Source: a virus | Lineage: Duplodnaviria; Heunggongvirae; Uroviricota; Caudoviricetes | Length of the DNA stretch: 11,692 nt | Virus record (IMG/VR): IMGVR_UViG_2778261223_000024 | Coordinates: 1 to 11,692 of that record | Direction: 5' to 3' (one strand) | Shown here: one piece after another, positions 1,416 to 10,924 of the stretch | Layout: every line of letters starts with the position of its first letter | Numbering within the stretch: the stretch's first letter is position 1 | The notes under the pieces: generated by a model | Databases searched by the model: none | The model's input: the letters and a program-made list of their open reading frames with translations, nothing else | What the model was told of the DNA's origin: nothing | Translations under genes and position numbers: made by a program

Positions 1416-1446
1416 AGCTGCATTTATTAAGGTTATCATCCGTTTC

Positions 1447-1533
1447 GCTGAAAAACATAACCCATAAAATGCTAGCTGTACCAGGAACCACCTCCTTAGC
1501 CTGTGTAATCTCCCTTACACGGGCTTATTTTTT
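1447..1533 (+). ncRNA. cyaR: CyaR (RyeE) Hfq-binding small RNA, about 87 nt
   Basis: The sequence GCTGAAAAACATAACCCATAAAATGCTAGCTGTACCAGGAACCACCTCCTTAGCC...CCCTTACACGGGCTTATTTTTT matches CyaR as I recall it. It contains the CCTCCT anti-Shine-Dalgarno motif and ends in a GC stem plus T-run terminator (about 1509..1533). Placement between yegQ and ogr is as in K-12. Confidence 0.85.
1507..1533. other. P2-type attachment-site core (prophage/host junction) overlapping the CyaR terminator
   Basis: The reverse complement of 1507..1533 is AAAAAATAAGCCCGTGTAAGGGAGATT, which matches the 27-bp P2 att core as I recall it. It sits where host DNA meets the ogr-proximal prophage end. Confidence 0.55.
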
Positions 1534-1935: not shown

Positions 1936-3099
1936 TCACTCATCATCTTCTGTTTCGTACTCCACATCAGAAAGCCTGACCTCAAGCTCTAAGGACGTCG
2001 TGAAGCCGCTATTATTCAGAAAATGTGTCACCTTAGTGATTGTCCAGTCCTGCTCGTCTATGACGCGCTTAAAGCCTGATACTTTGACCGGCGTTTCCGT
2101 GTAAATATCTGCCCGACCGGTAGCCAGACTGATGGAAAACTCCGCAACGCCCCGTTGCAGCTTATCCCACTTCGCCTGAGCGGCGCGCATGGCCTGCGCT
2201 TTCGTGGCATATACCGTGGTCAGGGCAAAAACGTTGTCAGCTTCACCGGCCATGTATTCACCTTCGCGCGCTTCCGGTACTTTTGGCGCTTTCTTCTGCG
2301 TGACTGGTTTCGCTTTCGGGTGCTCCAGTGCGCGCAGGTGTTTTTCTTTCTTTTTGCGTTTCAGTTTTACCTTCTGCTTTTGCGGCTTCGGGTCTTTGGT
2401 GTGAAGCCACTTTGCCGTTACGCCGGTATAGGCTCCACGGTCAGCAATCGCAAAATGGTGGCGGTCGCCGTCGCTGCGGGTTATGGTGACCTGCGGGATT
2501 TTTTTACCGCTGGCCGTCACCCCCTGCCCCGCTTTGAGAAACAACAGTTTTCCCATTTTTACCGAGACCTCACCGCCGTTGCGTTCTGCAAGACGGGTCA
2601 GGAATTTCGCATCAGACTCCTGCGACTGGTCGATGTGCGGGATTTTAATTCCGGCCAGTGACGGAGCGACACTGGCTTCCAGCCTGTTACGGGTGGCTAT
2701 CGCCTCAACAATCGCACCGAGCGTGGTGTCATGCCAGGAGCCTTCCCGGCGGGAATTGAGCGTCCCGCGAAAATCTGCACTCCGGGCGCGGATGGTGACC
2801 ACATCCGGTGCGCCCCGGTGTTCAACCTCATCAACGGTAAATTTCCCTTTGCATACCAGGGCAAAACCTTTCCAGCCGATATACACCGTCAGGACAGCGC
2901 CACGAACCGGCAGCCCGACCTGCCCGTCGGCATCGTTCAGTTCAATATCAAGCTGGTCAGCCTCAAAGCCCCGGTTATCCGTCAGGGTCATGCTCATCAG
3001 ACGGTCGCTGATATTGCCGGTAATATCCCTGCTGTCGAGCATCAGCATGTAATCCGGCGTCAGCGTACTGCCTGCATCAAATGTCAGCGCATCCAGCAT
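1936..3099 (-). CDS. D: Tail protein D (late control gene D / Phage_GPD family), 387 aa
   Basis: ATG at 3099..3097 overlaps the U stop (TAATG). Length and position are as in the P2 FETUD operon. It contains a Lys-rich linker. Confidence 0.9.
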   Translation of the reverse strand: MLDALTFDAGSTLTPDYMLMLDSRDITGNISDRLMSMTLTDNRGFEADQLDIELNDADGQVGLPVRGAVLTVYIGWKGFALVCKGKFTVDEVEHRGAPDVVTIRARSADFRGTLNSRREGSWHDTTLGAIVEAIATRNRLEASVAPSLAGIKIPHIDQSQESDAKFLTRLAERNGGEVSVKMGKLLFLKAGQGVTASGKKIPQVTITRSDGDRHHFAIADRGAYTGVTAKWLHTKDPKPQKQKVKLKRKKKEKHLRALEHPKAKPVTQKKAPKVPEAREGEYMAGEADNVFALTTVYATKAQAMRAAQAKWDKLQRGVAEFSISLATGRADIYTETPVKVSGFKRVIDEQDWTITKVTHFLNNSGFTTSLELEVRLSDVEYETEDDE

Positions 3100-3592: not shown

Positions 3593-6040
3593 TTAACCGT
3601 CATGCATCATGCTGGCACGGGCGCGCGCACGTTTATCCCGCTCGTATTTTTCGAGCGCATCCTGTAACTGGCGGTCGAGCTGAGTCCCCGGCGCAGTACC
3701 GCCCGTCAGGCTGATGTGATATTCGTTTTTACTCTGGTCCACATAAGAGCGGCCAGCCGGTGCCGTGACCGGCTGATAAGCCTGATAGCCTGCATAAGAG
3801 CTGGTCGCCGGAATATAACCACCGGTGCCATACGTGGCGGCATTAGTCCTTGCGGCGGTCTGGTCAAGTGTGTCTGACTCTTTGTTGATAACACCGAGTT
3901 TTTCCAGTACCCAGTCAATACCACTGCGCAGTTTGTTGAACGCATTAAGCGGCAGCATCAACGCGTCAGCCAGTGCCTGCCCGAACATGACGCCCGTGTC
4001 ACGGCAACGGTTCAGGGTGTCCTGTGTGGCTTTAACCGGGGCAATCAGGTTTTTAAACCACTGCCACGCGGCCTGTAACTTTTCGCCCAGCCAGTCAAAC
4101 ACCGGCTTAAGTGGCGTGAACAGTTCCCCCACCGGCGCAAATGCCGCTTTCAGCCCTTCAACCACACCGCCGAAGAATGCGCTGACAGGCTCCCAGTATT
4201 TACGGATAAGCAACGCCCCGGCGACAATGGCGGCCACCACGGCCACAACCGGCCAGCTAATCGCACCGATGGCCGTCATAACAGCACTGCCAACCGTCGT
4301 GAAGATTGCCCCCATTGCGCCTGCTGCCGCGATAATAGCATTGATGCCGGTGATAACCGGCCAGGCTACGAGGCCAATGGCACCAATGATGCCAGTCAGC
4401 GCCAGTGCACCACCGGCAATAATGCCGATGGTTGACGCCAGTGATTTGTTTTTCTGGATCCAGCCGTCGAGTTTTAACACATACATTGTGGCCGTCTGCG
4501 TGAGCTTACGCAGTGCGCCTTCCTGCTGGTCAAACAGGTCAGTCCCCACCGCCTCATAAGCGGACTGAAACTCCTTAAAGTCACCGCCGAGATTGTCCTG
4601 CATGATATTTACCAGCTCTGCGGTCTTCCCGTCTGAGACTTTAAACGCAGCGGTCAGTTTGTCCAGCTTTCCGGTTGAGGCGGCAGTCATCAGCACAGCG
4701 GCGGATGAGCTGGCCTCCTCCCCGAAAATGGTTTTCATGTATTCAGCCTGCTGGGCAGTACCGAGCCGGTTTTTCTCAAAACTGGCCTGCATTTCTTTCA
4801 GAATGGTAAATACTGGTCGGGTATTCCCCTTAGTGTCTGAGGTTTTCACGCCAAGCTCTTTGAGTGCATCCCATGCTTTTCCCGTCGGTGCCTGCAGGCG
4901 ACTTAACACGGCACGGCTTCCCGTCCCCGCCATTGAGCCTGTGATTTTTGCATCATGCAGCGCCCCGACCATTGCGGCGGTTTCTTCAATGCTGACACCG
5001 GCATTTTTTGCCACAGGTGCGGCATAGGTCAGCGCATCGCTCATGCCGTCAAAATCGGCGGCAGTTTTGTTCATCGTCATGGAGAGAACATCCCCGATAT
5101 GAGCGACCTTATCGTTTGAAAGCTGAAAGGCGGATTTCATCCCCATCAGCAGGGCGGCGTTTTCTTCCATCGTGCGGCGGTTCGCCAGCGCCATATTCAG
5201 CGTGACCGGCGTTGCCGCCTGAATGGCATCAACATCCCCACCGGCTTTCGCAATGATAATCTGTGCACCGGCTGCATCATCCGCCGAGGCGGCAGTATTG
5301 TCACCGAGCTGGCGCGCCTGCTTGCGGAGTGCGGCCATTTCGGCGGAGTCTTTTGCCACACCGAGCACGGCCTGCAATTCTGAGTTTTTCTGCGCAAACT
5401 CATAACCGGGCATCAGTATCTTAACACCGGCCATCGTTCCCGCCGCCGCAATCCCCACTCCGGCAGCGCCTACTGAGGCCATATTTCCGGCCAGTTCCTT
5501 TCCTGCCTGATAACGCTGTTTGACTGCGTTAAGTTTTGCCTGTTGTGCACTGACACGCGCCAGTGCATCGCGCTGACGGTTAAGTTGTGCGGTGGTTTCA
5601 CTGATACGGTTTTTCAGCCCCTGCTCATCATGTGCAAGATTGCGGGTATTAATTCCCACAGCGGCCAGTTCCCGCTGCTGGCGTTTAACAGAATCCGTCA
5701 GGCGGTTATATTTCGCCTGTAAGTCCTCCGCCGCACGCTTTGCGGATTCCAGCACTTTCGCCTGAGCACGGGTTGGACGTTCGGTATTTTTAAACTGTGT
5801 GGCAAGGGCTTCGGCCTCCTGCCGTGCCTTTTCAAGTGCATGACCAGTCACGGCGAGCTGTGCACTGGTCTTGCGGAATCCCTCAATACGGGATGCGTGA
5901 CCGTTCAGCTCGCGCAGTGATTTTTGTGTTTCCCGGATATCCCCCGACAGCGACTTACTCGCTGTACGGATGGATTTAAACGGGCGGGATGCCTGGTCAA
6001 CAGCCCTGAGCAATACCTGTAATTTTACATTGTTACTCAT
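3593..6040 (-). CDS. T: Tail tape-measure protein T, 815 aa
   Basis: Long Ala/Gln-rich coiled-coil N-terminal half and Gly/Ala/Ile-rich hydrophobic segments, typical of tape-measure proteins. The 815-aa length is that of P2 gpT. The start ATG at 6040..6038 overlaps the E' stop. Confidence 0.9.
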   Translation of the reverse strand: MSNNVKLQVLLRAVDQASRPFKSIRTASKSLSGDIRETQKSLRELNGHASRIEGFRKTSAQLAVTGHALEKARQEAEALATQFKNTERPTRAQAKVLESAKRAAEDLQAKYNRLTDSVKRQQRELAAVGINTRNLAHDEQGLKNRISETTAQLNRQRDALARVSAQQAKLNAVKQRYQAGKELAGNMASVGAAGVGIAAAGTMAGVKILMPGYEFAQKNSELQAVLGVAKDSAEMAALRKQARQLGDNTAASADDAAGAQIIIAKAGGDVDAIQAATPVTLNMALANRRTMEENAALLMGMKSAFQLSNDKVAHIGDVLSMTMNKTAADFDGMSDALTYAAPVAKNAGVSIEETAAMVGALHDAKITGSMAGTGSRAVLSRLQAPTGKAWDALKELGVKTSDTKGNTRPVFTILKEMQASFEKNRLGTAQQAEYMKTIFGEEASSSAAVLMTAASTGKLDKLTAAFKVSDGKTAELVNIMQDNLGGDFKEFQSAYEAVGTDLFDQQEGALRKLTQTATMYVLKLDGWIQKNKSLASTIGIIAGGALALTGIIGAIGLVAWPVITGINAIIAAAGAMGAIFTTVGSAVMTAIGAISWPVVAVVAAIVAGALLIRKYWEPVSAFFGGVVEGLKAAFAPVGELFTPLKPVFDWLGEKLQAAWQWFKNLIAPVKATQDTLNRCRDTGVMFGQALADALMLPLNAFNKLRSGIDWVLEKLGVINKESDTLDQTAARTNAATYGTGGYIPATSSYAGYQAYQPVTAPAGRSYVDQSKNEYHISLTGGTAPGTQLDRQLQDALEKYERDKRARARASMMHDG

Positions 6041-6517: not shown

Positions 6518-7036
6518 TCACAGGCCGATATTGCGGCGGTGTTGCTCCAGCCGGTCGACGCCGTTCACCTTCTCAATCATGTTGATGGTGTCGATTTCGA
6601 CCAGCTCCTTACCGTCCATCGTCAGCCGGAAATAGGTGCAGACCACGGAGATTTTCGACTCGGTGTCTTCTCCCTGTTTACCCTCGCCGGTGTCGATTTC
6701 TTTCTGACGTCCACGCATGACCACTTCGACGGCCACCGTTTCGCCGGTATCGTCGCGCTGGTAAGAGCCTGCAAAACGAATCGGCACGGCATCCACACCG
6801 GTTGAGGCGTAAAGCTCCCAGATAACCGAATCCGGGAAGCCACCGAGCGACCACTCCATTGACAGCGCATCGTCATCAAGGCCGAGGTCTACCGGTGCGC
6901 TGCCGTTCATCCCCGCACCGCGATAGTTTTCGAGCTTACGGGTCAGTTTTGGCAGCGTGACGGACTTTGCAACGCCCTGATAGCTGTAGCCGTTCAGAAA
7001 GACGTTCATTAACTTGAGTTTGCGCGGCATTGCCAT
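6518..7036 (-). CDS. FII: Tail tube protein FII, 172 aa
   Basis: ATG at 7036..7034 with a GGAG Shine-Dalgarno in the 12-nt gap after the FI stop. Length and position match P2 gpFII. Confidence 0.9.
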   Translation of the reverse strand: MAMPRKLKLMNVFLNGYSYQGVAKSVTLPKLTRKLENYRGAGMNGSAPVDLGLDDDALSMEWSLGGFPDSVIWELYASTGVDAVPIRFAGSYQRDDTGETVAVEVVMRGRQKEIDTGEGKQGEDTESKISVVCTYFRLTMDGKELVEIDTINMIEKVNGVDRLEQHRRNIGL

Positions 7037-7048
7037 CGGTCAGGCTCC

Positions 7049-8239
7049 TTAATTGCTGTTAACCGAGGTGACCAGATTTGCCAGGTATTTATCGGTAATA
7101 CGCTGGCGCAGGGTCAGGTTTTCAAGAGGAGGCACCGGAGTATAGTCGTAGTCGATATACAGTTTTCCGGCCTTGAGGGTTTCCGCATCGTTGGATTCTT
7201 CGCTGAACCAGCAGGTCGCATCCACGATATAGCCGTTTGTTTTCAGCTCACGGAATTTGGCATTGATGCCGTCAACGATGTCGCGAATCAGCGTTGCGGT
7301 GATGGGCTTGTCCACCGCCCACATGTGCGCCTCAGCCATCGTGTCGGCCAGCACCTGCGCGGTGCGGGTGTAGTTTTCAAAGAGGAACAGCGGGTCATCA
7401 GAGCAGGTACGGTTACCCCAGAAGCGGAAACCGTCGCGGCGAATCAGCGTAGTGACGCCTGACTCATTAAGCAGGTCAGCATCGGTGCCGGACTCCTGCA
7501 AATCCCAGAATACAGAGGCGCTGATGCCGGTAACACCGTTCACCCCAACGTTGGACAGTGTTTTATGCCAACCCTGCTCCTGGTCGATTTTAGCGCGCAG
7601 ACCCAGCGCACGGGCGGTGGCATACGCGGTGGCGGTGGTACTGGTGACCGTATCCCATGCGAGGAAATCCGGCCAGATGACCATCAACTCACGCTGGCTG
7701 AAATTCTGGCGGTAGGCTTTCACCTCGGAAATGGTCTTACAGCCCCATGCGCTGATATATCCGAAAGCACGCAGCTTCTGACAGACGGATGCCAGTGCAA
7801 CAGCCACCTCTTTGGTATCCAGTCCCGGCACACCGAGAATACGCGGTTTAACACCGGTTACCGACTCCGCCGCCAGCAGGGCTTTCAGTCCGGTGTACTG
7901 ACCGTTTTCGTCGGTGGTGCCGATGATATTGGAAACGGTCTGCGCGAGTTTCGTTTCCTCGTCGTCGCCGGTGCCGTCTTCCACACGCACGACAACGGTG
8001 ACCGGTTTTGACTGGTCGGCGATGGCCTGCAACGATGCCGCCAGCGTGCCTTTTTTACCGGCCTTTGCAATTGCGCTCTGCACATTGGTAATCAGCACCG
8101 GTTTATTGAGGGGGAAGGTTTCCGCATCCGCATCGCTGGCCGTGCAGACCATGCCGACAATGGCCGTGGATACGGTGGAAATGACGCGGGTGCCGTCGTT
8201 AATCTCCAGCACCTGCACGCCGTGATGATAGTCACTCAT
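7049..8239 (-). CDS. FI: Contractile tail sheath protein FI, 396 aa
   Basis: ATG at 8239..8237 with a GGAG Shine-Dalgarno about 8 nt upstream. The 396-aa length and the position as first gene of the F-E-T-U-D operon match P2 gpFI. Confidence 0.9.
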   Translation of the reverse strand: MSDYHHGVQVLEINDGTRVISTVSTAIVGMVCTASDADAETFPLNKPVLITNVQSAIAKAGKKGTLAASLQAIADQSKPVTVVVRVEDGTGDDEETKLAQTVSNIIGTTDENGQYTGLKALLAAESVTGVKPRILGVPGLDTKEVAVALASVCQKLRAFGYISAWGCKTISEVKAYRQNFSQRELMVIWPDFLAWDTVTSTTATAYATARALGLRAKIDQEQGWHKTLSNVGVNGVTGISASVFWDLQESGTDADLLNESGVTTLIRRDGFRFWGNRTCSDDPLFLFENYTRTAQVLADTMAEAHMWAVDKPITATLIRDIVDGINAKFRELKTNGYIVDATCWFSEESNDAETLKAGKLYIDYDYTPVPPLENLTLRQRITDKYLANLVTSVNSN

Positions 8240-8333
8240 CCGTTTAACTCCGTGGTTAATGGGTGCAACTATTTTCCGTTGGGTAGTACATGAGACGCTA
8301 TTTGACCTGGCTGGTCAGTGGATGAAACAACAG
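8240..8333 (-). promoter_or_regulatory. Region expected to hold the Ogr-dependent late promoter (PF-like) for the tail operon
   Basis: About 95-bp leader upstream of FI and downstream of a terminator. It contains the dyad TGACC-N5-GGTCA and an imperfect TGT-N12-CCA element. P2 late promoters are reported to carry a TGT-N12-ACA dyad near -55. The exact site is not resolved by eye. Confidence 0.3.
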
Positions 8334-8363
8334 ATAAAGAAAAGGCGGGCAATCTGCCCGCCT
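8334..8363 (-). terminator. Rho-independent terminator after the 230-aa cargo gene
   Basis: Minus-strand stem AGGCGGGC/GCCCGCCT with loop AGATT followed by TTTTCTTTAT. It separates the cargo transcript from the FI late promoter region. Confidence 0.55.
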
Positions 8364-8498
8364 GTCCTGATTTGTACACACTCATTTTCCGACTGACAAT
8401 TTACATAGCCAAAACGCTATCAAATCTGACAGCCTGTTTTGAGCGAAGAGGAACCTGAGATTGTGGTATGCTAATTTATGGGGAGCAGGTCAATTGTA

Positions 8499-9191
8499 TT
8501 AGTTATCTTTTGGCCTTTCTTTATCCCATTTCTTTACAGTGGTCTGATACCACTCTTCACGTGCTCGTTGTTCCTCTGCTCTGTCACTTGAATTATAGTT
8601 GTCTGTTTTAATTTTTTTGCTTCCCTGGGAAATCGGCCTCCAGTCTTCTCTAATCTTTTTCATCTGCTCAGCTATCTGTGTCATTGGACTCCTTGCACCT
8701 AAGTAGCTAACCCCCTCGAAAGAAGCCATATCATAAGAATACTCATTCCGCTCTCTTTCAGTTGAGCCCGGCTGTTTAGACCAGCTAATACTAACAGAAT
8801 AAACTTGATCTTTAATCTGGTCATACTTACAAAGACTGCTGTTGAGGGAATGGCCGTTTTTCAATACGCTAACCTTGCTAAATGGTATACCTTTATTTTT
8901 TCTATGTTCTGCATTAACCAGTGGGGGATTAAATTCGACTTCAATATCATAGGCTGGGGCATTTCCGGTATTAGCAATATTGATATCAAAATAAAAAGCA
9001 GCCCAAGAATTTGGTTCAAGAGTCACAACGACATGAGGTTGAACTGATGCGTCAACCATCCTTTTTGTCTCGTCTGCTAATAGCCTTGTTACTCTCCACA
9101 AGAAAAATGTAGCAACTGCTGTTAGCAATGCTGCCAAAGCGGAGATAAGTGTACTTACTGTGTTTATATGCTCTGCGATAAATTCGATCAT
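8499..9191 (-). CDS. Hypothetical membrane-anchored protein, 230 aa (cargo gene 1); family not recognised
   Basis: ATG at 9191..9189 with an AAGGA Shine-Dalgarno 6 nt upstream. One hydrophobic helix at residues about 12..33 (TVSTLISALAALLTAVATFFLW), then a roughly 150-aa soluble domain and a highly charged K/E/R-rich C-terminal tail. AT-rich codon usage unlike the adjacent tail genes. Confidence 0.75.
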   Translation of the reverse strand: MIEFIAEHINTVSTLISALAALLTAVATFFLWRVTRLLADETKRMVDASVQPHVVVTLEPNSWAAFYFDINIANTGNAPAYDIEVEFNPPLVNAEHRKNKGIPFSKVSVLKNGHSLNSSLCKYDQIKDQVYSVSISWSKQPGSTERERNEYSYDMASFEGVSYLGARSPMTQIAEQMKKIREDWRPISQGSKKIKTDNYNSSDRAEEQRAREEWYQTTVKKWDKERPKDN

Positions 9192-9612
9192 GAGTTGTCC
9201 TTGGGGGCGTACTAATTGTTTTCAATACTAAAATAGCGCCGGGCTTGAAAAATTGCACACTTATGGTTCGATTTACCTCAACAGTTAAGGCTTCTACTTC
9301 CCCCATGCACCTCACCCAGCCCAAGACTGTATGAGGTCTGACAAAGAACTTCCTGACACTTGAAAACGAGGCAACGGCTAGGGTTTCTCGTAGGGCAAGG
9401 ATTGAATACGAAGCCTGTATATTGCTCCGCAAACGCTGCTGAGGGCAGTTTAAATGTTGGGCGTTTATGTAGCCTTTCACTCACCAGCATGAGTTCAATG
9501 TCTGTGAGTTACCGACAACAATATAAAGGGGGTGGCATCATCATATATCCAAGCTAGAGTCAAATCCTCTAACTGGTTTTATGATCAGTGTCAATTGTTT
9601 GATTATTGAACG

Positions 9613-9641
9613 TTTACGAAGCAGCACGGGAGCCATATAAC
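9613..9641 (+). promoter_or_regulatory. Candidate sigma70 promoter of the two-gene cargo operon
   Basis: TTTACG (-35, 9613..9618), 17-nt spacer, TATAAC (-10, 9636..9641). The predicted start near 9648 leaves a roughly 35-nt leader before the 9683 ATG. Confidence 0.45.
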
Positions 9642-9682
9642 TAATGGGCAGGTATAAGCCTGTATCACGAGGAATCAGTATA

Positions 9683-9862
9683 ATGGCTGATGATAAGACC
9701 AAAATCGGTACCCCTGACAATGATTTAATAAGTATCAAACAGGATTACGAGAGACGTGATTGGGCTGAAAAGTTTGGAGTTAGCGAGGCCAAACTTGTTC
9801 AAGCCGTACAGGCTGTAGGTCATTCGGCTAAGAAAGTACAGGCATGGCTTAAAGACCATTAA
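9683..9862 (+). CDS. DUF3606-like small protein, 59 aa (cargo gene 2)
   Basis: MADDKTKIGTPDNDLISIKQDYERRDWAEKFGVSEAKLVQAVQAVGHSAKKVQAWLKDH resembles the short DUF3606 family as I recall it (N-terminal MxDDKxK and a YExRxWxxKFG core); unverified. GAGGA Shine-Dalgarno 9 nt upstream. An alternative in-frame ATG at 9644 (72 aa) would lie upstream of the predicted transcription start. Confidence 0.7.
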   Translation: MADDKTKIGTPDNDLISIKQDYERRDWAEKFGVSEAKLVQAVQAVGHSAKKVQAWLKDH

Positions 9863-9868
9863 TATATG

Positions 9869-9893
9869 AGCGCCTTTCTAGGCGCTTTTTTCT
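9869..9893 (+). terminator. Intra-operon rho-independent terminator / attenuator
   Basis: Stem AGCGCC/GGCGCT (9869..9874 and 9881..9886) with loop TTTCTA followed by TTTTTTC, lying between the two cargo genes. Confidence 0.55.
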
Positions 9894-9914
9894 TTGTCCT
9901 TTGGGAGATGATTT

Positions 9915-10193
9915 ATGGCTAATAATTTATTTATTACTTACGACCTCATTAAAACGAAAGATTATGCGGCTGTGTATGATGCAATTAAATCTTTAGGAAA
10001 TTGGGCTTTAACAACTGAATCGAACTGGTATGTTAACTGTAGTTACTCTGCCGAGGATGCAGCCAAAATTGTGAGGGCGGTCATGGATAGTGATGATAAG
10101 CTTATTGTTGTAGACGCAACCAATAACTCAGCTTATTGGTACAATCTCTCAGATGAAGTTAGTAACCAAATTCTGACTGAGTGGAACAAGTAA
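9915..10193 (+). CDS. Hypothetical small protein, 92 aa (cargo gene 3); family not recognised
   Basis: ATG at 9915 with a GGGAGA Shine-Dalgarno 6-7 nt upstream, stop TAA at 10191..10193. The residue pattern suggests alternating strands and helices (LFITYDL / YAAVYDAIKSLG / WYVNCSY / AAKIVRAVM / KLIVVDA / AYWYNL), reminiscent of small ferredoxin-like folds; this is inference from primary sequence only. Confidence 0.7.
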   Translation: MANNLFITYDLIKTKDYAAVYDAIKSLGNWALTTESNWYVNCSYSAEDAAKIVRAVMDSDDKLIVVDATNNSAYWYNLSDEVSNQILTEWNK

Positions 10194-10195
10194 TT

Positions 10196-10220
10196 AAAGG
10201 GGGTGGGTAGCCCCCTTTAA
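10196..10220. terminator. Bidirectional terminator hairpin closing the cargo operon and the G transcript
   Basis: Perfect 8-bp stem AAAGGGGG/CCCCCTTT with a 7-nt loop, flanked by A/T-rich sequence on both sides. It sits where the plus-strand cargo operon and the minus-strand G transcript converge. Confidence 0.5.
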
Positions 10221-10396
10221 TTCAGAAACTATCATTACTGGGTTAATTCTTTCATCTTTGCTCCCTTGCTATATGTCCTGAAAGCGTCCTTTTTAGCCTT
10301 CTGCTCAGTATGTCCGGTAATGGCACAGAGCGGACTGCCAGATTAGGCTTTACTCTGTGCCATAGATATGTAATCTCACACCAGAGCTTATACAAC

Positions 10397-10924
10397 TTAT
10401 TGCGGCATTTCCGGCCATTCAGGATTTGCAGGATCCACACGACTGACCAAAACGCTGTAGCGTTCCCAAGCCTCCAGCCGTGTGCGCTCCTCCTCTGTTG
10501 CCATATTCAGCCTGACAGCGCGCTCCAGCGGCAAAATCACGGATTCAGCATCTGCAAGAAGTCTGGCTTTCCGAATTTCTGCCTGCTGTTGTAATTCCTC
10601 TGCCGTATAAATGCGTTTAATCACTTTGCCGTCCTTAAACATCCAGTTCCCTGAAATGTCCGCCCGTCGGTTAGCAGTAATATCCGGCACTTCAACAACA
10701 CTTAATCCATCCGGTCTGATAGCTGTCACATCCTTTTCTACATAGCGGATAATATTATCTTTGTCGTACGCTATTTTTATCGTGTCATCAGCAAAATACT
10801 TTTGTTCTTCGTACCAGTTCTTACCATCTTCTGTAAAAAACCAGACAACATCAAAGTCCTTTGTCAATTGATATTGTTCAACCGTTTTTGGATTACCTGC
10901 CGTTATATTTATCAAATGCTGCAT
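10397..10924 (-). CDS. G: Tail fibre assembly protein G, 175 aa
   Basis: ATG at 10924..10922 three nt after the H stop. The C-terminal ...[38 protein letters not shown] is typical of P2-type tail-fibre assembly chaperones, and the length matches P2 gpG. Confidence 0.85.

Follow-up and report, generated by a model that had tools for sequence, protein, structure and literature searches.

The window, by which we mean the whole stretch of 11,692 nucleotides analysed here, consists of E. coli chromosome passing into a P2-like prophage. A chromosomal gene that we take to be yegQ and the small RNA CyaR are followed, on the minus strand, by late genes of the P2 type, namely D, U, the tape-measure gene, the tail tube gene and the sheath gene. 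Beyond the sheath gene lies a low-GC insert, the moron, which ends at the tail fibre assembly gene. The features relevant here are:

1-1362: chromosomal gene, presumably yegQ
1445-1530: CyaR small RNA (Rfam, 100.7 bits)
6518-7036, minus strand: tail tube gene
7049-8239, minus strand: sheath gene
roughly 8250-10400: low-GC insert (moron)
8499-9191, minus strand: ORF1 of the ORF list, 230 aa, left flank of the gap
9683-9862, plus strand: DUF3606 gene, 59 aa (Pfam PF12244, E 2e-18), right flank of the gap
9915-10193, plus strand: 92-aa gene (phrog_1090, E 1e-24), partner of the DUF3606 gene in the 'right cargo' slot
10238-10321, minus strand: 3' remnant of a tyrosine integrase gene (residues 366-393; tblastn 86% identity, E 3e-10)
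10397-10924: tail fibre assembly gene, followed by the tail fibre gene

Given its location between the sheath and tail fibre assembly genes, the insert occupies the Z/fun moron slot of P2-like phages, which has the same position, from the tail fibre assembly gene to the sheath gene. Z/fun is described as a variable locus of P2-like phages between the tail genes G and FI (Nilsson et al. 2004, as cited in PMC9122126). Identical or near-identical copies of the island are found in 99 of 5,426 complete E. coli genomes, strain 50579417 (NZ_CP033884) having exactly this island, and the same moron is carried by phage R18C and by the 'P2-EC53 Z-region' (AJ512682). 'Left/right inverted repeats' are annotated in AJ512682; a repeat search with seed 8 and a minimum length of 14 detected no long inverted repeat flanking the moron.

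Of the three moron proteins, ORF1 contains a hydrophobic N-terminal stretch, is named DUF8453 in some RefSeq records and matches phrog_11802 (E 2e-145), a phrog of unknown function; a homologue elsewhere is 70% identical and is devoid of the first 44 residues. Sequence searches with all three proteins in PADLOC, NCBIfam and PDB returned zero significant matches. The gap of 491 bp between ORF1 and the DUF3606 gene (9192-9682) is bounded exactly by the ATGs of these two genes, the latter at 9683, as a preliminary description of the locus had placed it, and identical RefSeq copies carry zero annotated features in it. The same description called the gap free of ORFs, which is right in that it contains no intact gene; a TTG-initiated ORF at 9360-9557, however, terminates in the last 45 codons, stop included in addition, of a gene like that for endonuclease VII (EndoVII) and is thus a gene remnant. 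A sensitive DNA search revealed that the gap as a whole is a mosaic, made up from left to right of the following pieces:

9192-9238, minus strand: leader of ORF1, 47 bp, with matches only within the same island family; 12.8% of columns substituted
9239-9329, plus strand: 91-bp piece from the left end of a satellite core, homologous to DNA upstream of a serine-recombinase gene
9330-9403, no strand assigned: 74-bp stretch without a blastn-short match to any satellite locus
9404-9416, plus strand: last 13 recognisable bases of a satellite 'hyp' gene, GAATACGAAGCCT(G), approximately codons 76-79, directly 5' of a deletion junction
9417-9557, plus strand: remnant of an EndoVII-like gene, codons 98-142 and the stop codon
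9558-9682, plus strand: native 125-bp spacer of the satellite, from the EndoVII stop to the DUF3606 start

The source of the right-hand part of this mosaic is apparent from the satellite-like island of E. coli NCTC11023 (locus L053), situated at 934-943 kb of that genome, in which the genes for the major capsid protein, an HNH endonuclease, two small hypothetical proteins and EndoVII (142 aa) are followed by a 125-bp spacer, the DUF3606 gene, the 92-aa gene and a tyrosine integrase gene. Window positions 9426-10321 align with this island as a single block of 85.5% identity that ends in the integrase remnant. In L053 the spacer (4480-4604) is likewise 125 bp long, with 88% identity over the stretch. 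Both L053 and a further island, L052, have an integrase along with replication- and capsid-related core genes; of the satellite genes and core, the window retains no more than a 91-bp piece from the left end and the codons for 28 integrase and 45 EndoVII residues. Judged as an integrative island, the moron is a remnant and not a functional satellite.

A tblastn search with the intact 142-aa protein of L053 recovered EndoVII residues 98-142 at 9417-9554 of the window with 63% identity (E 4e-13). The intact proteins of L053 and of locus L002 score 27.4 bits against PF02945 (cut-off 23.6) and match phrog_423 with E 9e-16; the window segment is accordingly homologous to residues 98-142 of EndoVII family members that lie above the Pfam cut-off. 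The PF02945 match on the intact protein spans residues 63-108 and includes the DHCH motif at about 86-89. This catalytic and zinc-binding region is absent from the window, which therefore lacks an intact EndoVII domain, and the fragment by itself gives no Pfam match. In contrast to the members of the family, the window has just the C-terminal third of the protein with the DHCH motif deleted, and is a dead remnant rather than a working member.

The 91-bp piece at 9239-9329 is 80% identical to positions 3001-3091 of locus L003 and 82.6% identical to positions 1501-1586 of locus L096, both in the intergenic DNA of satellite-like islands. These two islands differ in their cargo, one having hyp/DUF3800/hyp genes and the other a TIR-domain gene, and their mutual homology begins almost exactly at the start of the 91-bp piece. 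Given that two islands with different cargo become homologous at the equivalent of 9239, the piece represents the left end of the conserved core. A leuX island with the 91-bp piece, that of WP8-S17-ESBL-12, also has an EndoVII gene about 10 kb further on, and both order and orientation are as in the window. The piece shows no codon periodicity; a 29-aa TTG ORF within it was considered as a gene and rejected as non-coding, with substitutions distributed 8:4:6 over the codon positions.

The adjoining segments are marked by traces of the 99-aa 'hyp' gene that precedes the EndoVII gene in the satellites. An anchor string of this gene is present at 9404 of the window and at 4001 of L053, and a four-way alignment was made of the window, L053, L002 and L022, the last being a diverged P2-like contig. 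To the left of 9404 the trace is lost: positions 9378-9403 have a weak, non-significant protein-level likeness to the 3' part of the 'hyp' gene, and a DNA alignment test for a 'hyp' remnant against L053, in a poor scoring scheme, was likewise not significant. The tblastn match of L022 to 'hyp' residues 66-99 (E 8e-12) extends into the equivalent of 9330-9403.

L022 and two further IMG/VR contigs, L023 and L080, are diverged P2-like phages with a sheath protein 78% identical to that of the window, and they carry the island in the same slot. All three have 312 extra bp exactly at window positions 9417-9420. These 312 bp bring back EndoVII residues 1-97, disrupted by an in-frame stop, a small deletion and a frameshift within a run of A, together with the last 34 codons of the preceding 'hyp' gene, which contain two stops. 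As the undeleted form already carries the frameshift and stops, the EndoVII gene was dead before the lineage of the window lost the further 312 bp. By parsimony, the difference would be a deletion in the window and not an insertion in L022. The junction displays GTA microhomology, with L022 reading ...AAGCCTGTA/AGCGGG...(312 bp)...GCGGTA/TATTGC (slashes mark the two break positions), and the intact satellites read AAGCCTGCAAGCGGG at the junction region of the four-way alignment. The undeleted form of the island occurs in none of the complete E. coli genomes; 12 genomes cover most of the L022 query, and among the matches listed all are satellites with the endonuclease gene annotated as intact. 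The integrase remnant of L022 is also longer than that of the window (44 residues) and contains a stop codon. A minus-strand 70-aa ATG ORF (9278-9490) was rejected as a gene, as it runs across the junction and is not preserved in L022.

The deletion bears directly on a 10-nt direct repeat, AAGCCTGTAT, which the preliminary description noted in a region that, it suggested, could contain operator sites. Both plus-strand copies are present exactly where they were reported, at 9411-9420 and 9656-9665, with an additional 9/10 copy at 9323-9332. When the 491 bp were shuffled 2000 times with dinucleotides preserved, 168 of the shuffles (8.4%) contained a direct repeat of at least 10 nt, and among 46 tiles of the same size from the window 12 did so; the repeat is within chance and not notable in itself. 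Copy 1 is composed of nine bases from the 'hyp' side of the junction (AAGCCTGTA) and a T from EndoVII codon 99; the same position reads AAGCCTGTAA in the undeleted L022 and AAGCCTGCAA, within coding sequence, in the intact satellites. Having been assembled by the deletion from what is coding sequence in intact satellites, copy 1 cannot be an inherited operator. Copy 2 lies in the leader of the DUF3606 gene, between a putative -10 element and the Shine-Dalgarno sequence GAGGAA (9669-9674), and is identical in L022, L009, L053, L004 and L029. L008 lacks it, and four loci from other genera (L092-L095), whose downstream gene shares only 37.5% identity, have AAGCTTGTAA in its place; thus, it is not a fixed motif.

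These observations need to be set against the proposal that the gap serves as a dedicated region of divergent control, in which the AAGCCTGTAT copies are operators coordinating ORF1 and the DUF3606 cassette. The two genes do diverge and both need promoters, both copies are exact, and neither is substituted in the deleted form of the island (20 of 22 versions). Yet one copy was created by the junction, the other is altered or missing in some of the other contexts of the cassette, repeats of this length arise in 8.4% of shuffles, and the copies are direct repeats 245 bp apart, with copy 1 about 220 bp from the ORF1 start. We therefore hold an operator pair to be highly improbable; the two copies appear to be a coincidence, with copy 2 probably a part of the inherited leader.

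Substitution patterns across the island are in line with decay. We compared 22 distinct island versions, some from the P2-like Z/fun slot, others from the diverged P2-like phage and from a third context, a prophage site with IS2 and a DUF977 gene as neighbours. These versions are closely related (92-100% identical), which gives the following values limited power for a short conserved element (percentage of columns substituted; substitutions at first, second and third codon positions where applicable):

Whole gap: 13.6%, with sub-segments at 12.0-14.6%
ORF1: 7.8%; 13:13:28
DUF3606 gene: 2.2%; 0:1:3
92-aa gene: 5.7%; 3:3:10
Other non-coding parts: 15-17%
EndoVII remnant: about 14%; 7:6:7
Integrase remnant: about 15%; 6:5:3

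An excess of third-position substitutions, as expected of coding sequence, marks the live genes and is absent in both the EndoVII and the integrase remnants, and the gap varies like other non-coding DNA, in a neutral-like and even manner. This pattern is pertinent to the question of whether the TTG ORF at 9360-9557 could be a live small gene, encoding a C-terminal EndoVII fragment with a new function. Its frame stays open for 65 codons and retains the ancestral stop codon, and a 3-bp length difference in the CATCATCAT run (9536-9538) relative to L009, L022 and the intact genes preserves the reading frame. However, the ORF begins with TTG and has no Shine-Dalgarno sequence, its N-terminal 19 codons come from another gene and were fused to the rest by the deletion, the catalytic motif is absent, there is no Pfam match, and substitutions in its EndoVII-derived part fall about equally on all codon positions. 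We give this reading almost no credence. The preliminary description had itself named findings that would speak against its reading, and in spirit such a finding emerged: 9239-9557 is recognisable gene and island debris except for the 74 bp at 9330-9403, though it holds no intact gene.

A structured non-coding RNA of the moron system, for instance an antitoxin-like or guide-like RNA, had also been suggested for the gap. The untranslated stretch is indeed long for a phage moron, and the minus strand folds slightly better than shuffled sequences (z = -1.31), but this value, like that of the plus strand (z = +0.20), is not unusual for folding energy against shuffles. Rfam 15 gave no match in the gap at E <= 1 when run on the whole window; a search of 9150-9720 yielded matches to eukaryotic families far below their gathering scores, the best with E 1.7 and 15.5 bits against a gathering score of 95. 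ARAGORN detected no tRNA or tmRNA, and no tandem or array-like repeats were found in the repeat search. In the 91-bp piece, RNAalifold recorded compensatory changes for 2 of 20 plus-strand pairs and for 0 of 35 minus-strand pairs, with a covariation term of about zero. Furthermore, the cassette exists elsewhere without 9192-9571, and the variation along the gap is neutral-like and even. An RNA gene is, on this evidence, very improbable.

Comparison of the contexts in which the DUF3606/92-aa cassette occurs points instead to the right end of the gap. In all contexts other than those described above, homology to the window extends only from 9572 rightwards; these comprise L004, L029 and L008, located in E. 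coli or viral contigs, and L092-L095, species representatives from Silvania, two Enterobacter species and a Citrobacter. The block at 9572-9618 is the only one conserved across contexts, including the four loci from other genera, in which the module is about 90% conserved and the downstream DUF3606 homologue only 37.5% identical. Distant homologues of the 92-aa protein in high-GC phages have neither the module nor DUF3606, and are uninformative on the operator. The elements recognised in and around this block are:

9571-9590, no strand assigned: LexA-box-like palindrome AACTGGTTTTATGATCAGTG (CTG-N10-CAG), at the left edge of the conserved module and kept in all 11 contexts
9594-9589, minus strand: perfect -35 hexamer TTGACA adjoining the palindrome, from direct reading and the promoter scan, with a degenerate -10 partner in the window (TAGAGG)
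9613-9641, plus strand: putative sigma-70 promoter of the DUF3606/92-aa cassette, TTTACG (9613-9618), 17 nt, TATAAC (9636-9641)

Both plus-strand hexamers are kept in L008 despite an 18-nt spacer of different sequence between them, and the promoter would give a leader of about 35 nt that contains copy 2 and GAGGAA. The pair scores 6.2 in our own position weight matrix (PWM) scan, below the median best score of 8.9 for shuffled sequences; the best candidates in the gap reach 6.2-8.0, none of them above this median, and a promoter-scanning tool reported 0 sites in 8200-10450. As no sigma-70 candidate exceeds the shuffled background, it is conservation alone that carries the promoter assignments. 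Within the gap, comparative support for a putative regulatory role is confined to the spacer at 9558-9682. Divergent promoters, as first envisaged for the gap, are thereby retained in part: the outward-facing genes must draw their promoters from it, and the 111 bp at 9572-9682 accompany the cassette in other islands, with a conserved palindrome and conserved -35/-10-like hexamers. The idea presumably also applies to some promoter close to ORF1. For the upstream side of ORF1 such comparisons are unavailable, since the distant ORF1 loci (L007, L073 and L074) all lack the 5' end of the gene; in L073 different DNA lies directly upstream of the truncated ORF.

The palindrome follows the pattern (A/T/C)ACTGGTTT(T/G)ATGA(T/C)CAG(T/C)G over its contexts. 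The consensus of LexA operators is TACTGTATATATATACAGTA (PMC13203515, PMC4576408), with which the palindrome shares the CTG-N10-CAG frame and an AT-rich spacer. In a PWM built from E. coli LexA sites, whose scores are a lead and not proof, the copy at 9571-9590 attains 14.5 bits, by far the highest value in the window (6.9 for the second best, with an expectation of about 0.02 per 11.7 kb), and falls within the known-site range of 12.3-27, where satellite palindromes score up to 18.1. Like LexA (SOS) operators, it adjoins a -35 element, namely the perfect one on the minus strand; unlike them, this candidate site stands clear of the plus-strand promoter, with about 22 nt between it and the -35 downstream, and its score is at the low end. 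The minus-strand TTGACA probably belongs to the leftward promoter of an 82-aa gene of the parental satellites; this divergent gene is present in L004, L008, L029 and L092-L095 and absent in the window.

A different role for this hexamer would be to drive ORF1 itself, through a leader of about 380 nt running antisense through the EndoVII remnant, which would render ORF1 DNA-damage-inducible. Such a promoter would have a perfect -35 and a palindrome placed where a repressor would block it, and in AJ512682 (P2-EC53), too, the putative -10 is annotated at a long distance upstream of ORF1 (window 9525-9520). The -10 TAGAGG is nonetheless degenerate and the combined score of 8.0 remains under the shuffle median; in the parental satellites the promoter faces the 82-aa gene that the window lacks; and the -10 of AJ512682 falls in QQYKG codons conserved in intact EndoVII genes, so that coding constraint would explain the match. 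We regard this route to ORF1 as unlikely. A more comprehensive version would have the moron as a miniaturised satellite in which the retained 47-bp module at 9572-9618 acts as a working LexA/SOS operator and bidirectional promoter, making the DUF3606/92-aa cassette DNA-damage-inducible and possibly also ORF1 by way of a long leftward transcript; we mention it as a tentative and rather doubtful possibility suggested by the sequence.

Together the above observations make it very probable that most of the gap derives from the collapsed interior of a phage-satellite-like island residing in the Z/fun slot, and that it has arisen by decay rather than as a dedicated control region or RNA gene. We propose that the two cargo modules of the island, ORF1 on the left and the DUF3606 and 92-aa genes on the right, have survived while the core between them collapsed into the gap, leaving, in order, the 47-bp ORF1 leader, 91 bp of core end, about 74 unmatched bp, 13 bp of 'hyp', the junction, 45 EndoVII codons with their stop, and the 125-bp spacer. 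ORF1 occupies the 'left cargo' position of the collapsed satellite. Of these pieces, only the approximately 110 bp proximal to DUF3606 would work as a regulatory module, comprising the predicted TTTACG-17-TATAAC promoter, the leader with GAGGAA, and the upstream palindrome, which may bind LexA or another dimeric regulator. The ORF1 promoter would be situated somewhere in 9192-9330, and the remainder of the gap would be drifting DNA.

The phenomenon amounts to ordinary gene decay together with a single inherited promoter module. It resembles the pseudogene debris of prophage morons and genomic islands in its truncated, frameshift-bearing EndoVII, 'hyp' and integrase fragments, its neutral-like rates and the existence of a less decayed version in a relative; it differs in that the fragments come from a satellite-like island inside a phage genome and that both cargo modules were kept while a core of about 10 kb was lost. 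The arrangement is also akin to the cargo hotspots of P4-like and PICI-type phage satellites (Rousset et al. 2022, PMC9122126), in which variable accessory genes lie beside the integrase and at the opposite end of the core, and for which the same cargo is likewise seen in a P2-like phage. The donor family, characterised by capsid, HNH, EndoVII, serine recombinase and tyrosine integrase genes, was not matched here to P4, PICI or cf-PICI, and a literature search gave no name for it. As to a defence role of the moron cargo, PADLOC returned no significant match.

A false lead is thereby removed, as the long untranslated stretch and its repeat point to no new RNA or operator system. Follow-up of the moron therefore belongs with its three proteins and the promoter module of about 110 bp, at the edge of which a conserved SOS-box-like palindrome is now flagged. 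A by-product of the analysis is a case of direct transfer of satellite-like island cargo into the P2-like Z/fun slot, together with the wreckage of core genes. Nilsson et al. 2004 aside, an origin of the moron's non-coding DNA from a satellite or an EndoVII pseudogene was not found in the literature and records on this moron; its 'relatively long non-coding regions' had already been remarked upon in phage R18C (PMC6823313).

The entire moron (8440-10336) is collinear with a satellite-like island coding for a capsid protein, an HNH nuclease, EndoVII and an integrase, the roughly 10-kb core of which has been deleted. Near its right end lies a residue of the island integrase:

10238-10321, minus strand: 28 codons from the 3' end of a tyrosine integrase gene, left as a remnant that shares 86% identity with the integrase of the intact island in E. 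coli NCTC11023

The corresponding remnant in L022, a diverged P2-like contig, is longer than that of the window and contains a stop codon. The same segment, 8440-10336, is found as one unit in three contexts:

context 1: the Z/fun slot of P2-like phages
context 2: a diverged P2-like phage (L022, L023 and L080)
context 3: a prophage, adjoining IS2 and a DUF977 gene (L009 and L024-L028)

Across genera (L092-L095; Silvania, two Enterobacter and Citrobacter), conservation is about 90% for the divergent 82-aa gene and for the 47-bp palindrome module, whereas the DUF3606 homologue downstream is only 37.5% identical. This disparity places the cargo-exchange breakpoint in the leader, close to CATAAGCYTGTA. 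The high-GC viral contigs L030-L032 carry solitary homologues of the 92-aa protein, 54-57% identical and unaccompanied by DUF3606. Each is oriented divergently to a 76-aa ORF, which in turn overlaps the beginning of a large ORF bearing motifs like those of DNA methyltransferases. Their solitary occurrence marks the 92-aa gene as a widespread, stand-alone phage accessory gene. ORF1 homologues are widespread in E. coli, at 70% amino-acid identity, and the copies compared (L007 2408-2980, L073 and L074) lack the first ~44 residues, which constitute a hydrophobic N-terminal stretch; the L007 copy is situated amid IS30 and IS3 elements, adjoining an AbiJ-NTD4 gene.

A consensus promoter scan of 8200-10450 recovered 0 sigma-70-like sites, against 5.1 +/- 2.3 in shuffled sequences, and such sites thus appear to be depleted in this AT-rich insert. 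The '-10 signal' TATATT annotated in the P2-EC53 record (L005 913-918; window 9520-9525, minus strand) falls within the codons for QQYKG in the EndoVII remnant. As these codons are also retained in intact EndoVII genes, the match is probably incidental. An exact 12-nt direct repeat, TAAAGGGGGTGG, longer than the 10-mer of the preliminary description, is present at 9524-9535 and 10195-10206, with one copy inside the EndoVII remnant and the other inside a hairpin:

10192-10223: GC-rich hairpin immediately 3' of the 92-aa gene; read on the minus strand, its features are terminator-like

This repeat probably arose by chance. A match of the hairpin to a plastid 3' UTR family in Rfam was sub-threshold and is spurious.

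The GenBank record of phage R18C (MN016939, L006) leaves the DUF3606 gene unannotated, and has inside it what is probably a mis-call:

9725-9859 (L006 3034-3168), minus strand: antisense 44-aa ORF

Between the right end of the P2-like prophage and the chromosomal gene at 1-1362 there is an sRNA gene:

1445-1530, plus strand: gene for the sRNA CyaR/RyeE, present at full length (100.7 bits and E 1e-19 against Rfam RF00112)
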